Translations under genes and position numbers: made by a program
Shown here: positions 13,232 through 43,121 of the stretch, in pieces
Position numbering within the stretch: position 1 is the stretch's first letter
Layout: every line of letters starts with the position of its first letter
Assembly (NCBI GenBank): GCA_017444895.1
Contig: JAFSVR010000017.1
Span: 1 to 60,918, forward strand
Direction of reading: 5' to 3'
DNA: 60,918 bases
From: Clostridia bacterium
GTDB lineage: Bacteria > Bacillota > Clostridia > Christensenellales > UBA1242
The notes under the pieces: model-generated
What the model was told of the DNA's origin: nothing
The model's input: only the letters and a program-made list of their open reading frames with translations
Databases searched by the model: none

Positions 13232-13384
13232 TTTGTTTGCTCCTATGCCAAATCAGTTTAGCATAGTTGGCCATTTTGTTTGTCCTCAATGCCAAAACAA
13301 GTCAAAAGAAAACACCAATTTTGGTTTTTATCTTTTATTTGACATATTTTGCTTAAAATTTCAATAGTTACTGGTCAGTTATTG

Positions 13385-28981: not shown

Positions 28982-29018
28982 AAATTCCAAAATAATAGCA
29001 TAACAAAAGAAGGACAAT

Positions 29019-30629
29019 ATGGAAATTGATGCGATAACACAATCACTTAACGAATACACAAACGGCGAGTTTGATTTTGCCTTGCGTTCAGCAAGCCTAA
29101 GCGGGGAAACTTGCACGCTTGAAATAACATATAAAGATGGGTCAATTTTAAGGAAAGAAAAGCGTCAGGAATTGACGCTTTTTGCCTTGAAACAGCTTCC
29201 AGCCGGATTTGTTTATAACATCAAATTTGTTAAGAATTTTATAACCAGTGAAGTTGTTGAGGACGCCGTAAAAAGCATAATTGCCCATGAGTTTCCAGCG
29301 CTTGTTTATTCCTATGGTTCATTTGATGAAGAAAATGGACATTTAGTTGTCATCAATATCAATTCTCAACTTAGTGAATACGCTAAGAACAAAAATGTTG
29401 AAAGCGTAATCGCTGAAAAACTTAAAGAACGATTTTTAAGTGATTTTGTTGTTAAGTGTGATCTTAGCGATGAGGTTGGGAAAATTGAAGAAACTGAAGA
29501 AGAGTTTTTTGTTGAGTCAACCATTGTTAAACACGAAATAGATGTTGATGAAGTTAATGCATTGTGTGGTGAAAAGATAATGCAAAAGCCAATTTATATT
29601 CGTGATGCGCTTGCCAAAGTTGGCGAAGATGTCGTGGTTTGTGGGAAAATAAAATTCCTTAAAAGCGACAAAATCAAATCAAAAAAAGATAAAAAAGAAG
29701 ATGTGATAGAACAGCCGGAGCAAGCAGACACTTCACAAGACGGGGAAGAAGCACCAGTTCCATACGAAAAAAAATACTATAAGTTCAGTGTTGAAGATTT
29801 TTCTGGCGAAATTAAATGCATATACTTTTCAACAAAGACCACAATCGCTGGTGCAGAAAAACTTGCTGATGGAAGCGAGGTTGTTTTAAGCGGGGTTGTT
29901 GAAGAGGATAAGTTTGCAGGTGGTGTTTGTATCAAAACAAAAAATATCAGTCTCTGCATCTTGCCAAAGAATTTTAAGGAACCAGTTGTTTGGAAAACTG
30001 AGCCAGAACATTATAGGTGTTGCTTTCCAGAACCATATGTTGATGAAAAACAAGTTGATTTGTTCAGTGTTTTAAGCGGAAATCTTGATGACGTTGCTCC
30101 ATATTTGAAAGACCATGATGTTGTTGTTTTTGACCTTGAAACAACGGGGCTATCTGCCATAGACTGCAAGATAATTGAAATTGGTGCAGTAAAAATTCAC
30201 AACGGCAAAATAATTGAGAAGTTTGAAACGTTTGTTAATCCGAAAGAACATATTGCAGATGACAGCACACTCATTCATGGAATAACTGATGATGATGTTA
30301 AAGATGCACCAGTTTATGAAGATGCGCTTGCTGATTTTTATAAGTTCACACGCAATTCAACACTGGTTGCATATAATATTGCATTTGATTATAGTTTCAT
30401 TAGCACTTATGGAACAAAAGCAGGATACAACTTTGATAATCCGCAAATTGATGCCTTAAAACTTGCAACAAAAAACGTTAAGGGGGTCAAAAACTATAAA
30501 CTTAAAACAATAGCTGATAGCCTTGGGGTTCTCCTGGACAACGCACATAGGGCGGTATATGATGCAATTGCAACTGCTGAGGTGTTTATCAAACTTGCCA
30601 AATACATTGATGAAAATGGCAAAGTTTAG
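29019..30629 (+). CDS. PolC-like N-terminal/OB-fold protein fused to a DEDDh 3'-5' exonuclease; no PHP or polymerase domains
   Basis: Exo motifs VVVFDLETTGLS, LVAYNIAFDYSF, HRAVYDAIATAEVF. Preceding OB-like segment (VVVCGKIKF...GEIKCIYFS...VVLSGVVEE...). Lies between rseP and rimP, where polC normally sits. Confidence 0.6.
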   Translation: MEIDAITQSLNEYTNGEFDFALRSASLSGETCTLEITYKDGSILRKEKRQELTLFALKQLPAGFVYNIKFVKNFITSEVVEDAVKSIIAHEFPALVYSYGSFDEENGHLVVININSQLSEYAKNKNVESVIAEKLKERFLSDFVVKCDLSDEVGKIEETEEEFFVESTIVKHEIDVDEVNALCGEKIMQKPIYIRDALAKVGEDVVVCGKIKFLKSDKIKSKKDKKEDVIEQPEQADTSQDGEEAPVPYEKKYYKFSVEDFSGEIKCIYFSTKTTIAGAEKLADGSEVVLSGVVEEDKFAGGVCIKTKNISLCILPKNFKEPVVWKTEPEHYRCCFPEPYVDEKQVDLFSVLSGNLDDVAPYLKDHDVVVFDLETTGLSAIDCKIIEIGAVKIHNGKIIEKFETFVNPKEHIADDSTLIHGITDDDVKDAPVYEDALADFYKFTRNSTLVAYNIAFDYSFISTYGTKAGYNFDNPQIDALKLATKNVKGVKNYKLKTIADSLGVLLDNAHRAVYDAIATAEVFIKLAKYIDENGKV

Positions 30630-30680
30630 AACTTTTTAGGCAAAAAATGGCAATAAGTTTATATATTTTTATATAAATAC

Positions 30681-30709
30681 TTGCAATTTGGAAATATTTG
30701 TTTTATACT
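30681..30709 (+). promoter_or_regulatory. sigma-A-type promoter of the rimP-nusA-infB operon
   Basis: TTGCAA (30681-30686), 17 nt, TATACT (30704-30709). Confidence 0.65.
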
Positions 30710-30729: not shown

Positions 30730-30761
30730 CTAGGAGTGGCGCAGGCCACTCCTAGGTTTTT
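30730..30761 (+). terminator. intrinsic terminator/attenuator in the rimP-nusA leader
   Basis: Perfect 11-bp stem CTAGGAGTGGC-gcag-GCCACTCCTAG followed by GTTTTT. It lies between the promoter and the rimP SD/ATG (30775). Confidence 0.6.
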
Positions 30762-30774
30762 GAAAGGGGGCAAA

Positions 30775-31236
30775 ATGCAGAAAAATGTAACACAAAAGGT
30801 TCAAGAATTCATCGAACCAATTGTAAACAAACTTGGCTATGACATCGTTGAAGTTGAGTTTGGAAAGAAGCAAAACGGAATGAACTTAACCGTTTATATC
30901 GATAAAAAGGGCGGGGTTAGTCTTGATGATTGTGTTGCCGTTCACGAAGCGATTGATGCTCCCCTTGATGAACTTGATCCAACAAGCGGCGAGGGATATA
31001 TTCTTAATGTTTCAAGCCCAGGATTAGATAGGCCAATCAAAACCGATGCAGACTTAAATCGCAACCTTGGGGAAATTCTTGAAGCAACAACGTTTGTTAA
31101 AATTGGTGCAAAAAAGAATTTCGTTGGGAAGCTGGAAAAGTTTGATGATGAAAGCATAACTCTTATGGGTGAAGATAAGACCTATGAACTTAAACGTGAA
31201 CAAATTGCAAAACTCTGCAAATATATTGAGTTTTAA
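30775..31236 (+). CDS. rimP: ribosome maturation factor RimP
   Basis: LGYDIVEVEF..., SSPGLDRPIK motif. ATG 30775 follows AAAGGGGG (ORF opens at 30736 inside the leader hairpin). Confidence 0.9.
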   Translation: MQKNVTQKVQEFIEPIVNKLGYDIVEVEFGKKQNGMNLTVYIDKKGGVSLDDCVAVHEAIDAPLDELDPTSGEGYILNVSSPGLDRPIKTDADLNRNLGEILEATTFVKIGAKKNFVGKLEKFDDESITLMGEDKTYELKREQIAKLCKYIEF

Positions 31237-41490: not shown

Positions 41491-41874
41491 ATGATATATA
41501 AAGTTATTGGAACAGCATTAGTCACAATAATATTGAGTCTGTCGCTCAAAAAAAATATGCCAGAAATATCTGCACTGATAAATTTGAGCGGTGGGTTAAT
41601 TATAAGCTTACTTGCAATTAACAGTGCAAAAGATGTTATAGACAATTTTTTCAACTTCAGCACAAATCTTAAAGTGGGTTCATCAATCATCGTGCCTGCC
41701 TTAAAGGTGTTGGGGATTGGTTATTTAACTGAGTTCTGTTCAAGCCTTGCAAGCGACACTGGAAACAATTTTTTAAGCGATAAAATTATTCTTGCAGGGA
41801 AGATTGTAATTTTGGGTTTTAGCATTTCAAGCATTAAGAATTTGCTTGTTATGGTGTTAAATTTAATACAATGA
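41491..41874 (+). CDS. spoIIIAD: stage III sporulation protein AD
   Basis: 127-aa polytopic membrane protein, paralogous in style to AC; conserved order. Confidence 0.85.
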   Translation: MIYKVIGTALVTIILSLSLKKNMPEISALINLSGGLIISLLAINSAKDVIDNFFNFSTNLKVGSSIIVPALKVLGIGYLTEFCSSLASDTGNNFLSDKIILAGKIVILGFSISSIKNLLVMVLNLIQ

Positions 41875-43121
41875 AAAGTGCAAAAAATAAATTAATTATT
41901 AAAAATAATAGCAAAATATTAAAACAATGTGTTAAATTTGCAATATTATTGCTTGCCATTGTGGTGGTTTTTGCAGTATTAAACCAATCAGAACAGGTTG
42001 CTTGTTTTGCTGAAAATGAAGCCTATGTAAGTGATGAAGAGATTGAAAAACAGTTTGGAGTTGAAACAAATGCGCAAGTTGAGGAATTAGATTTTTCTAA
42101 ACTGGATAGTGAACTTGATGTTATTGGTGATGATATTGGTGTGTTTCAATCGCGCTCTTTCAAAGAGTATGTTTATAGTGTTATAAATGGTGATATTGTT
42201 GCAGATTTTGGCTCGATTTTTAGTGCTGTAAAAGAGGGGGCTGTTTCATCTTTTAAGGGGGTAATTGCATCTTTTAGTGCCGTTGTCGTTCTTGCAATTC
42301 TATTCTCCCTTTATAATTCTTTTGCGCCGACTGGCAAGGTTAGCAATGTGATTAAAATTATGTTTGCATCATCAATTGCAATAGTTCTTTTGCTCGTCAG
42401 TAAAGGGGTGGTTGAAAAGGCTAGTCAAGCAATGAAATCAATGCAAAATCAAATGAATATTATTTTTCCTATTTTGATTGGTTTAATTAATGTTGCTGGT
42501 GCGGGCTTGTCTGTAAAAATGTTTCAACCCAGCATGTTGTTTCTAAGCTCTGTTATATCCAATGTGTTTTCATATTTTTTAATGCCATTGTTCTTGATTA
42601 CTGTTGGCTTCACGGTTGTTGAATCGCTTTCAACTGAGAATAACTTTTTTAAGTTTTCTCGCTTCACAAAAAGTTTGTTTAAGTGGACGATTGGTGTGGT
42701 GTTTGGGGTGTTTATGTCGGTGCTTACCATTGGTGGAATAACGAGTGGGGCGAGTGCGGGGGTGAGTGTTAAGGCAACAAAGTATGCCCTTAAAAACTAT
42801 ATACCGTATCTTGGTGGGTATGTTAGTGATGGTTTTGAGTTGTCACGGGCTTCGGCAATATTGATTAAAAACTCCGTAGGTTTCTCTTCGCTGATGTTGT
42901 TGCTTGCAACAATAATATCTCCGATAGTGTCAATTGGTGTGTTCTCGCTAGCATTAAACCTGATTTCATCAATATGTAAACCTATTATTAATGATTCACA
43001 AAATAGTTTAATTCAAAACTTTGCTGATGCTTTCAAGATGCTTACGGCAATTGTTGTTGGCGTTGCCGTTATGTATTTTTATATGCTCAGCTTGGTTGTC
43101 AGCACTGTGAACATTGTGTAA
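41871..43121 (+). CDS. spoIIIAE: stage III sporulation protein AE
   Basis: 416 aa, signal/TM, acidic extracytoplasmic linker, then ~7 TM; conserved order. Confidence 0.85.
   Translation: MKSAKNKLIIKNNSKILKQCVKFAILLLAIVVVFAVLNQSEQVACFAENEAYVSDEEIEKQFGVETNAQVEELDFSKLDSELDVIGDDIGVFQSRSFKEYVYSVINGDIVADFGSIFSAVKEGAVSSFKGVIASFSAVVVLAILFSLYNSFAPTGKVSNVIKIMFASSIAIVLLLVSKGVVEKASQAMKSMQNQMNIIFPILIGLINVAGAGLSVKMFQPSMLFLSSVISNVFSYFLMPLFLITVGFTVVESLSTENNFFKFSRFTKSLFKWTIGVVFGVFMSVLTIGGITSGASAGVSVKATKYALKNYIPYLGGYVSDGFELSRASAILIKNSVGFSSLMLLLATIISPIVSIGVFSLALNLISSICKPIINDSQNSLIQNFADAFKMLTAIVVGVAVMYFYMLSLVVSTVNIV

Follow-up and report, generated by a model that had tools for sequence, protein, structure and literature searches.

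The window examined here, the whole stretch of 60,918 nucleotides (nt) of contig JAFSVR010000017.1 from a Clostridia bacterium (assembly GCA_017444895.1), carries an open reading frame (ORF) at 29019..30629 (+) in the chromosomal slot of polC, the gene for the DNA polymerase PolC. In the ORF list it starts with ATG and encodes 536 amino acids (aa); the coding sequence is complete, begins 38 nt after the stop codon of rseP and is preceded by a Shine-Dalgarno-like AAGGA (29010..29014, +), read from the sequence, 4 nt before the ATG. The protein consists of an N-terminal domain (NTD), an OB fold, a linker with a motif resembling those that bind the beta sliding clamp, and a DEDDh 3'-5' exonuclease. 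It has its N-terminal modules and its locus in common with PolC, and none of the defining PolC traits of the polymerase, the PHP domain or the C-terminal clamp motif. A preliminary description of the locus, made from the sequence alone, had proposed that a PolC derivative retaining only NTD, OB fold and exonuclease occupies the ancestral polC position, and the domain homology, the synteny and a hairpin in the rimP leader that is shared with polC-bearing genomes bear this proposal out.

Results

Domain organization of the 536-residue protein

An AlphaFold2 model built from 57 homologs (mean predicted local distance difference test score, pLDDT, 87.7) comprises two small alpha/beta units (aa 1-72 and 77-150), an OB barrel, a mostly non-helical but confidently predicted linker and a DnaQ fold; all parts are given here on the + strand. 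The NTD (aa 1-155, 29019..29483) consists of two alpha/beta subdomains (about residues 1-75 and 76-155) with pLDDT values of 81-94, and is followed by an acidic, poorly conserved inter-domain linker (aa 156-176, 29484..29546; pairwise identity 0.20), the pLDDT being below 50 at aa 155-166 between NTD and OB fold. The OB fold (aa 177-314, 29547..29960), which was assigned by hhalign, PF01336 and Foldseek, is interrupted by a low-complexity insert rich in Lys, Glu and Asp (aa 226-245, 29694..29753; pLDDT below 50, identity 0.16). This insert is predicted to be disordered, is very variable in length across homologs, corresponds to a gap in PolC when the two are aligned by hhalign and is absent from the OB domains of PolC. 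Between the OB fold and the exonuclease, a linker that is conserved by column counts (aa 315-366, 29961..30116) stands in place of the N-terminal PHP segment of PolC and contains a candidate beta-clamp-binding motif, QVDLF (aa 345-349, 30051..30065; translation verified), of the type QL[S/D]LF or QxxLF. The DEDDh 3'-5' exonuclease domain of the PolC type (aa 367-533, 30117..30617) was assigned by its Pfam (PF00929), NCBIfam and PDB matches.

The exonuclease domain

The three DEDDh motifs that had been noticed in the ORF are present as quoted, VVVFDLETTGLS (aa 369-380), LVAYNIAFDYSF and HRAVYDAIATAEVF. The domain matched the Pfam model RNase_T (PF00929; aa 369-523, E 8.7e-37, 127.6 bits vs a cutoff of 24) and passed the cutoff of the dnaq subfamily domain model TIGR00573 (112.7 bits vs 71.5), and the protein is a genuine member of the DEDDh/DnaQ superfamily. 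Its placement with the exonuclease that is inserted in PolC, which had been made by eye, was upheld by the searches: the top NCBIfam models were two PolC models, the best alignment running from aa 362-533 to positions 419-591 of the 1445 positions of NF001688 (E 3.3e-49), and the closest PDB sequences were PolC exonuclease domains (2p1j, 4e-28; 9qpc, 9e-26). The cutoffs of the PolC models themselves were not passed (NF001688/TIGR01405, 167.4 bits vs 873 and 152.4 vs 1043), the exonuclease region alone being aligned. The exonuclease domains of the family to which the window protein belongs are 36-46% identical to those of PolC. In the structure model the DnaQ fold has pLDDT values mostly of 92-97, and Foldseek aligned it with DnaQ, epsilon and the PolC exonuclease at target-normalised TM-scores of 0.8-0.87 and a root-mean-square deviation of about 2 A.

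The catalytic residues D372, E374, D457, H510 and D515 were invariant in 115/115 homologs, although housekeeping proteins are just about 50-60% identical between the carrier genomes. Because these five residues have not changed in 115 sequences across a deep clade, the enzyme is under selection for nuclease activity of the kind that proofreads in PolC. The assignments of the PolC-type exonuclease and of the OB fold are established. DEDDh domains are reused outside PolC in other proteins as well, such as PRK06807/PRK08517, DinG-DnaQ, Cas2-DEDDh and the fusions of an exonuclease with DnaE1 in Bacteroidetes. PRK06807 and PRK08517 gave comparable DEDDh scores (about 137-141 bits), but the window protein remained under their curated cutoffs (141 vs 335; 137.5 vs 247), and none of these stand-alone PolC-type exonucleases and DnaQ fusions has a PolC NTD and OB fold in front or lies in the polC slot.

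OB fold, N-terminal domain and missing PolC modules

When a profile of the OB region without the exonuclease was compared with PolC, hhalign aligned it with PolC residues 248-349 (97.3%, E 2.4e-11), so that the PolC-like pattern previously seen in this segment has support that is independent of the exonuclease. In a control comparison, the same profile had no match in the C-terminal 850 residues of PolC. The Pfam OB model PF01336 was matched by 56/57 family members, and in a Foldseek search against PDB the top match was E. faecium PolC (9qpc_A) with 414 aligned columns, compared with about 170 for exonuclease-only matches. The OB domain is resolved in the PolC structure 9QPC, and the NTD is unresolved in every PolC structure (PMC12592400). 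Therefore, the Foldseek result supports OB fold and exonuclease and is silent on the NTD.

The further proposal that the first part of the protein corresponds to the PolC NTD received moderate support. A profile of 115 NTD sequences aligned colinearly with the PolC NTD (hhalign 74.9%, E 2.6e-5; aa 21-153 with PolC 26-169), the same region was selected when the whole 1481-residue PolC profile was offered, and reversed-sequence controls gave E values of about 0.2. The Pfam model of this region, PF11490 (PolC N-terminus II), was matched by 3/57 members, with a best E of 4.7e-4. On these profile alignments the NTD is probably homologous to that of PolC, and the N-terminal 360 aa, for which a lack of any likeness to PolC had been considered beforehand, do resemble PolC.

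The remaining modules of PolC are missing, as the preliminary description had stated for the PHP segment and for everything beyond the exonuclease. The window protein and 57 homologs had no Pfam match to PHP (PF02811) or Pol3 (PF07733), a hidden Markov model of the PolC C-terminus had no match in 58 family loci, and a DNA pattern for the PolC catalytic motif (PDIDLNF) was found in 0/58 family loci vs 18/18 complete PolC loci. In the profile alignment, the PHP-N segment of PolC (HxH...DHG..Q.FP...YG.E) is swapped for a 50-residue linker, in which hhalign weakly pairs 'FPEP' with the PolC PHP motif 'Q.FPEA'; judging from this pairing, 'FPEP' may be a vestige of PHP. The window protein stops about 10 residues past the last exonuclease helix, and the family C-termini extend 3-15 residues after the exonuclease and are variable in sequence. 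A split intein as the cause of the missing parts was ruled out by these variable tails of 3-15 residues, which have no intein-like extension.

The polC slot

The order of genes in the window is frr, uppS, cdsA, rseP, the 536-aa gene, rimP, nusA, ylxR, ylxQ, infB, rbfA and an nrnA-like gene, in agreement with what had been described from frr to rbfA. Wherever flanks were visible, nearly all family loci had the order frr-uppS-cdsA-(dxr)-rseP-(ispG), the short gene, and rimP-nusA-ylxR-(ylxQ)-infB-rbfA, and a survey of relatives for the same architecture at this locus found about 58 species genomes with the short gene immediately before rimP-nusA-infB. Full-length polC (1435-1441 aa) occupies the same slot in Planococcus, Planomicrobium and one metagenome-assembled genome (MAG) of Oscillospiraceae. 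Random samples were drawn from the genome collection as 8-kb blocks, with the blocks in random order. Of 153 PolC genes sampled in this way, 73 had an upstream flank that could be seen, and 57 of these lay directly behind ispG, proS or rseP; the other 16 were off-slot for ordinary lineage-specific reasons, a number about equal to that predicted by the hypothesis of a PolC at a second locus. A full PolC was also found behind ispG in MAGs labelled Christensenella sp. UBA7703 and Ca. Limiplasma, which indicates that these named neighbouring lineages retain the ancestral state. Neither polC nor dnaE is present in the 61 kb of the window, since its longest ORF is 821 aa, and no polymerase gene was found within 10 kb of the short gene in the 58 loci examined.

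The slot is also recognizable by its 3' side. The rimP leader contains a stem-loop, CTAGGAGTGGcgcaGGCCACTCCTAG, with a T-run (30730..30762, +; a terminator-like match), whose 5' arm is conserved in sequence (GAGAGYGG...CCRCTCTC; GGAGTGG...CCACTCC in the window) and in which 8/12 pairs had compensatory changes among sequences that were pre-chosen as hairpins. Many family loci (among L001-L057) have this hairpin after the short gene, and Planococcus and Oscillospiraceae have it after full-length polC; it was located at about 13250-13290 in loci L069, L072 and L075, at about 13280-13360 in L070 and at about 7340-7375 in L146. Since hairpin and T-run follow both types of genes, the 3' boundary of the polC slot has been preserved, and a hairpin common to genomes with the short gene and with full-length polC is probably the ancestral attenuator or terminator of the rimP-nusA-infB operon. 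An Rfam search with the hairpin returned just a sub-threshold match to an unrelated small RNA, tsr24 (21 bits vs a gathering score of 50).

The neighbours of the short gene in its operon act in ribosome maturation and translation, and the presence of rimP, nusA, infB, rbfA and the nrnA-like gene nearby could be taken to mean that the short gene encodes an RNA exonuclease that trims the 3' ends of rRNA, tRNA or nanoRNA. The database name "3'-5' exoribonuclease", the presence of RNase T and oligoribonuclease in the DEDDh superfamily and a weaker match of the exonuclease to an Rv2179c-like exoribonuclease model point in the same direction. However, PolC-bearing genomes have the same neighbourhood, which was inherited from polC and thus carries no functional signal. 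In addition, the top sequence and structure matches were DNA proofreading domains, and a clamp-binding-like motif is without a role in RNA processing. We consider a function in RNA processing highly improbable, and the substrate would be DNA rather than RNA.

Distribution and origin of the family

Homologs were sought among 5.8 billion proteins, and over 120 clusters at 90% identity were recovered, with full-length coverage, lengths of 505-590 aa and 37-62% identity, all of which came from uncultured Clostridia under the database names 'ribonuclease H-like domain-containing protein' or "3'-5' exoribonuclease". An exhaustive HMMER search, in which a profile of the N-terminal 355 residues was compared with 1.84 billion representative proteins, returned 529 representatives at 50% identity, 409 of them with E below 1e-10. 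In calibration, true PolCs scored at most 27.6 bits and all 58 genome-representative family members at least 45 bits with this profile, so that its matches are family members and not PolCs. The best 150 of the 529 matches were all 566 aa or shorter, and no PolC with a family-like N-terminal region was among them. The architecture and a length of about 490-600 aa are constant across the family.

Among the first 80 loci retrieved from species-representative genomes, 58 had the short gene, and a family-specific DNA pattern identified at least 120 loci in species-level genomes; well over 100 species-level genomes hold the short gene in the polC slot. Of 120 matches to exonuclease motif I that were sampled at random, 87 were PolCs, 9-10 belonged to the family and 23 were DEDDh nucleases of other kinds, so that the family made up about 10% of the PolC-lineage exonuclease genes in this sample. 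The carriers include independent assemblies from many hosts and a cultured isolate, Anaerocaecibacter muris CLA-AA-M11, which has the order frr-uppS-cdsA-dxr-rseP-ispG-[499 aa]-rimP and belongs by GTDB-Tk to family CAG-552, the proposed family Pumilibacteraceae. With the exception of one close relative, the housekeeping proteins of carriers are 49-59% (Frr) and 49-62% (NusA) identical to those of the window. Because this divergence is about as large as that from Lachnospiraceae or Bacilli, the carrier clade is deep. In neighbour-joining trees of 158 exonuclease domains, including about 99 PolCs, the family formed one clade with no PolC inside, which points to a single deep origin, and with the root on Bacilli it nests among clostridial PolCs; the trees were drawn without bootstrap and are indicative.

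Some contigs with family members come from MAGs with implausible labels (L002, Spirochaetales; L001, Thermoanaerobacterales; L006, Lachnospiraceae; L084, Bifidobacteriales), as do the PolC loci L328, L351 and L368, labelled Bacteroidales/Muribaculaceae. These labels probably result from binning contamination or loose label transfer. The label 'Christensenella sp.' was found on family-bearing MAGs and on the PolC-bearing MAG L223.

These data bear directly on the possibility that the gene is an artefact or a decaying pseudogene, i.e., a normal polC with a misassembly, a recent deletion or a frameshift, for which the only argument is that a gene of 536 aa is, a priori, an odd occupant of the polC slot. 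Over 120 clusters defined at 90% identity, and about 530 defined at 50%, have the same architecture, as do independent assemblies from many hosts and a cultured isolate, the catalytic residues and linker motifs are invariant, and the conserved rimP leader directly follows the stop codon. A misassembly or deletion at 30630, which had been suggested as a possible source of error, does not fit an architecture conserved in hundreds of lineages, and the explanation as an artefact is already refuted by these conservation data.

As the preliminary description had supposed, the architecture seems not to have been described before. We found no description of the combination of NTD, OB fold and exonuclease in two systematic surveys of C-family polymerases or in targeted full-text literature searches, and the family is absent from annotation as a named group, the curated models that were passed being generic (RNase_T, RNase_H-superfamily and the dnaq subfamily domain) rather than those of an already well-annotated family. 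Polymerase surveys drop fragments without a polymerase active site (PMC3919608), and stand-alone DnaQ homologs were assigned conservatively in a 2026 survey. The generic labels given by annotation pipelines, together with surveys that discard fragments lacking the active site, explain why a common family went unnoticed. The architecture is common in gut metagenomes and has been overlooked by annotation.

PolCs without exonuclease and the possibility of a split PolC

A protein with the N-terminal modules and exonuclease of PolC could be one part of a split PolC, in which the PHP domain and the polymerase are encoded elsewhere, be it with an NTD and OB fold of their own or without, the parts form a PolC-like holoenzyme non-covalently, and the short protein proofreads for a PolC-type polymerase. 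PolC variants without exonuclease do exist, confined to Clostridia and Negativicutes (PMC3919608), and accounted for 7/122 of the PolCs in our random sample; the window has the co-orientation typical of PolC-bearing genomes, and a few of the 16/73 off-slot PolCs come from unclassified Clostridia MAGs. However, both the known and the sampled exonuclease-less PolCs keep NTD and OB fold, and thus represent a reciprocal architecture and not the complementary half. These PolCs (for example that of Acidaminococcus, about 1190-1210 aa; Timinskas et al. 2014) show that the exonuclease and polymerase modules of PolC can come apart in Clostridia-type lineages with PolC and DnaE1, and they belong to the phylogenetic neighbourhood of the short protein, but they consist of NTD, OB, PHP, Pol3 and HhH and are still polymerases. 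Furthermore, the exonuclease in PolC sits between PHP strands 3 and 4 (PMC12592400), and therefore simple fission cannot give NTD-OB-exonuclease plus an intact PHP domain; two deletions, one internal and one C-terminal, are needed instead of one truncation. The off-slot PolCs are closest to ordinary Clostridiaceae or Lachnospiraceae PolCs, the C-terminus of the short protein is without a split-intein signature, and a polymerase partner appeared neither as a PolC with a family-like N-terminal region among the best 150 HMMER matches nor as a polymerase gene within 10 kb in the 58 loci. In-place deletion of the lone syntenic polC copy is the simpler history, and we regard a split PolC as unlikely, although it is the strongest competitor to the interpretation given in the Discussion.

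The seven exonuclease-less PolCs of the sample (L324, L332, L335, L342, L375, L377 and L380) came from Acutalibacteraceae, Oscillospiraceae, Syntrophomonadaceae and Clostridiaceae, and the N-terminal region was kept in all of them. Their frequency matches the 6% reported in 2014.

The conserved linker and its candidate clamp-binding motif

Within the OB-exonuclease linker and at its edge, C313, E321, Y332, P337 and Q345 are invariant across the alignment of 57 sequences, and P316, E328, E338 and L348 are nearly so. The linker has pLDDT values of 86-94, which fall to 71-75 around the QVDLF motif; in the model, this dip is consistent with an exposed, flexible linear motif. Residues 313-338 (nt 29955-30032), which are non-helical and combine invariant or near-invariant positions with high model confidence, suggest a second interaction surface.

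Q345 is present in 57/57 and L348 in 55/57 homologs, and all 57 aligned homologs contain an internal Q-x-x-[LFMI]-[FLM]. Among 58 divergent genome representatives, 52 have this pattern 19-25 (mostly 22-23) residues before exonuclease motif I, with variants such as QADLF, QTDMF, QASLF, QAGFF and QDNFL, whereas it was found at the OB-exonuclease linker site in 0/16 PolCs. The opposite distribution was observed for the C-terminal clamp-binding motif: of 16 PolCs, 15 carry Q[LMI][ST][LIF][FL] as their terminal residues or a few residues before the end, the sixteenth being cut off by the end of its contig, and this motif was found near the C-terminus in 0/115 family members. The bacterial clamp-binding consensus has been reported as QL[S/D]LF, or as QxxLF in a less strict form, and depends critically on positions 1, 4 and 5; the clamp-binding motif of PolC, QLSLF, is its last five residues, and the epsilon subunit of E. 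coli bears a weak clamp-binding motif of its own, QTSMAF (PMC12309361). The linker motif of the family fits this experimentally defined consensus. By these motif distributions, the family has lost the C-terminal clamp motif of PolC and gained a family-specific internal clamp-binding-like motif, newly recognized here, and this motif lends specific support to the earlier suggestion of a stand-alone proofreader or clamp-interacting accessory.

Versions of the motif without the glutamine (VTDLF, ETTLF, VKSVF and ANTVF) were seen in loci L017, L036 and L043 and in loci L048, L052, L054 and L057. They recall the degenerate xxxLF motifs reported for DnaE3.

Since many clamp-binding proteins are repair factors, the motif could instead belong to a clamp-associated 3'-5' DNA exonuclease similar to ExoI, ExoX or a DinG-associated exonuclease, which would have left the replisome to serve in mismatch repair, end processing or fork restart, with the polC slot as a relic. 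An OB fold and a DEDDh domain are also combined in ExoI-like enzymes, which were seen among the Foldseek matches, and clostridial DnaE1 already has PHP proofreading. In contrast, the exonuclease is nearest to PolC proofreading domains and not to ExoI, ExoX or DinG, the PolC-specific NTD, whose sole proposed role is attachment to the replisome, has been kept across a very deep clade, and the gene is apparently single-copy in a core housekeeping locus. A repair function therefore seems to us quite improbable, less so than a function on RNA.

Other features of the window

The window also encodes pcrA, ligA, priA, der, clpX, tig and spoIIIAE, and is an ordinary Bacillota chromosomal segment. The homolog of stage III sporulation protein AE (41871-43121, +) scored 148.8 bits vs a model cutoff of 247, and suggests that an endospore programme is present, or was formerly so.

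Downstream of the short gene, a rimP promoter had been proposed about 50 nt past the stop codon. A promoter-like pair of hexamers, TTGCAA-17-TATACT (30681..30709, +; weak, with 9/12 consensus matches), does start 52 nt past the stop, but such sites are no commoner than in shuffled sequence. The ORF call for rimP (30736-31236, +) begins at GTG 30736, within the leader hairpin; a start at ATG 30776 (MQKNVTQK...), preceded by AAAGGGGG, is more plausible. In two related MAGs, about 7.7 kb is inserted between the short gene and rimP (L018, 11036-18691; L030, 4991-12661), encoding a protein of approximately 1170 aa with a signal- or lipoprotein-like N-terminus, which indicates that the slot is breakable on its 3' side.

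All plausible genes of at least 150 aa in the window (1-60918) are on the + strand, the GC skew is positive in 30/30 2-kb bins, and the AT skew is mostly positive. As a leading-strand segment with all genes co-oriented, the window is unusually long. Strong co-orientation and a purine-rich leading strand are typical of PolC-bearing Bacillota. The use of AT and GC skew as a proxy for PolC was dropped, because all genes of the window lie on one strand and the skews are thus confounded; the atypical AT skew of Firmicutes has been ascribed in published work to selection and gene orientation, not to PolC itself.

Discussion

The retained NTD and OB fold, the new clamp-binding-like motif and the active-type nuclease together suggest a proofreader that is tethered to the replisome and acts in trans, and we think that the short protein is probably such a stand-alone, clamp-tethered proofreading subunit, evolved from polC. 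OB folds bind single-stranded DNA. Two deletions in polC, one internal and one C-terminal, would have taken out the whole PHP domain and the polymerase. The C-terminal truncation would have cost the protein the terminal clamp motif of PolC, and a new motif of the QxxLF type would have arisen in the flexible linker ahead of the exonuclease. This motif may dock the protein on the beta sliding clamp, the NTD possibly contacts the clamp loader, as has been proposed in the literature for the NTD of PolC, and the OB fold may grip template or single-stranded DNA. The exonuclease would then clear mismatched 3' ends left by a separately encoded replicative polymerase, in trans and similarly to epsilon. 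For B. subtilis it has been reported that the DnaQ domain of PolC is able to supply proofreading to DnaE in trans (PMC12926913). The polymerase served by the short protein would most likely be DnaE1, whose clostridial form combines a canonical clamp motif with an intact PHP site and a putative surface for binding epsilon that is conserved (PMC3919608).

When compared with PolC (B. subtilis and E. faecium; 9QPC and 3F2B), the family has the same slot (rseP/ispG/proS - X - rimP) and, in the same order, a homologous NTD (with moderate support), an OB fold and a DEDDh exonuclease. It differs in being about 520 aa instead of about 1450 aa long, in having no PHP domain, palm/thumb/fingers core, HhH motif or C-terminal QLSLF, and in its family-specific linker, which is conserved and contains QxxLF internally, as well as in the disordered insert that interrupts its OB fold. 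The other obvious comparison is epsilon (DnaQ) of E. coli, which is likewise a separately encoded DEDDh proofreading exonuclease without a polymerase domain; beside the nuclease, epsilon has the clamp-binding motif QTSMAF and the window protein the candidate QVDLF. However, the family is derived from polC and has an origin independent of proteobacterial dnaQ, with the superfamily fold alone in common; its motif is N-terminal to the nuclease and that of epsilon is C-terminal, and it has no epsilon-type C-terminal alpha-binding tail and adds an OB fold and a PolC NTD.

Several observations weigh against a clamp-tethered proofreader acting in trans. The homology of the NTD to that of PolC is moderate in strength. 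The candidate clamp-binding motif is short, its position 2 is usually V, D, A or T and not the L of the consensus, and a G at position 3, by which binding is weakened in E. coli, is found in some members; furthermore, the remaining 6 of the 58 divergent representatives, from two subclades, keep just xxx[LV]F and have lost the glutamine. An additional proofreader of the DnaQ type is not obviously required, because an active PHP proofreader is normally part of DnaE1 in Clostridia. PolC is essential in model Bacillota, which counts in favour of a co-resident PolC, and the orientation of all genes of the window on one strand hints, at most weakly, at the persistence of a PolC-type replicase.

A further step, for which we see somewhat less than an even chance, is that this species-rich clade of gut Clostridia has lost the PolC polymerase altogether and replicates with DnaE1 alone, its polC having been converted in place to an epsilon-like clamp-binding proofreader. 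Such a clade would include Christensenellales-like lineages, for example CAG-552/Pumilibacteraceae with Anaerocaecibacter muris. What PolC and DnaE1 each do in Clostridia was explicitly questioned by Timinskas et al. 2014, who asked whether DnaE1 is the main replicase there, and who described clostridial DnaE1 as having the hallmarks of a self-sufficient replicase and some Clostridia as having DnaE1 only (PMC3919608). A 2026 Nucleic Acids Research (NAR) survey lists nine DnaE1-only Firmicutes, among which Christensenella minuta appears not to be. The fully co-oriented and purine-rich window would be curious in a lineage that had lost the PolC polymerase.

PolC is regarded as the defining, essential replicase of Bacillota, and antibiotics that target PolC are in clinical development. 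A clade in which polC has been cut down to NTD, OB fold and exonuclease is a natural experiment on which functions of PolC are dispensable and which are kept, and the functions kept appear to be proofreading and tethering to the replisome. The cultured carrier A. muris CLA-AA-M11 makes the hypothesis directly testable. If the clamp-binding interpretation of the linker motif is true, the family would be a case in which a separately encoded proofreader, tethered to the clamp and analogous to epsilon, arose independently. The presence or absence of PolC in abundant gut commensals also bears on the impact of PolC-targeting antibiotics on the microbiome. If the PolC polymerase has indeed been lost, these abundant commensals would be without the target of PolC-directed antibiotics such as ibezapolstat, and the division of labour between alpha and epsilon known from E. 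coli would have been re-invented from a PolC ancestor.

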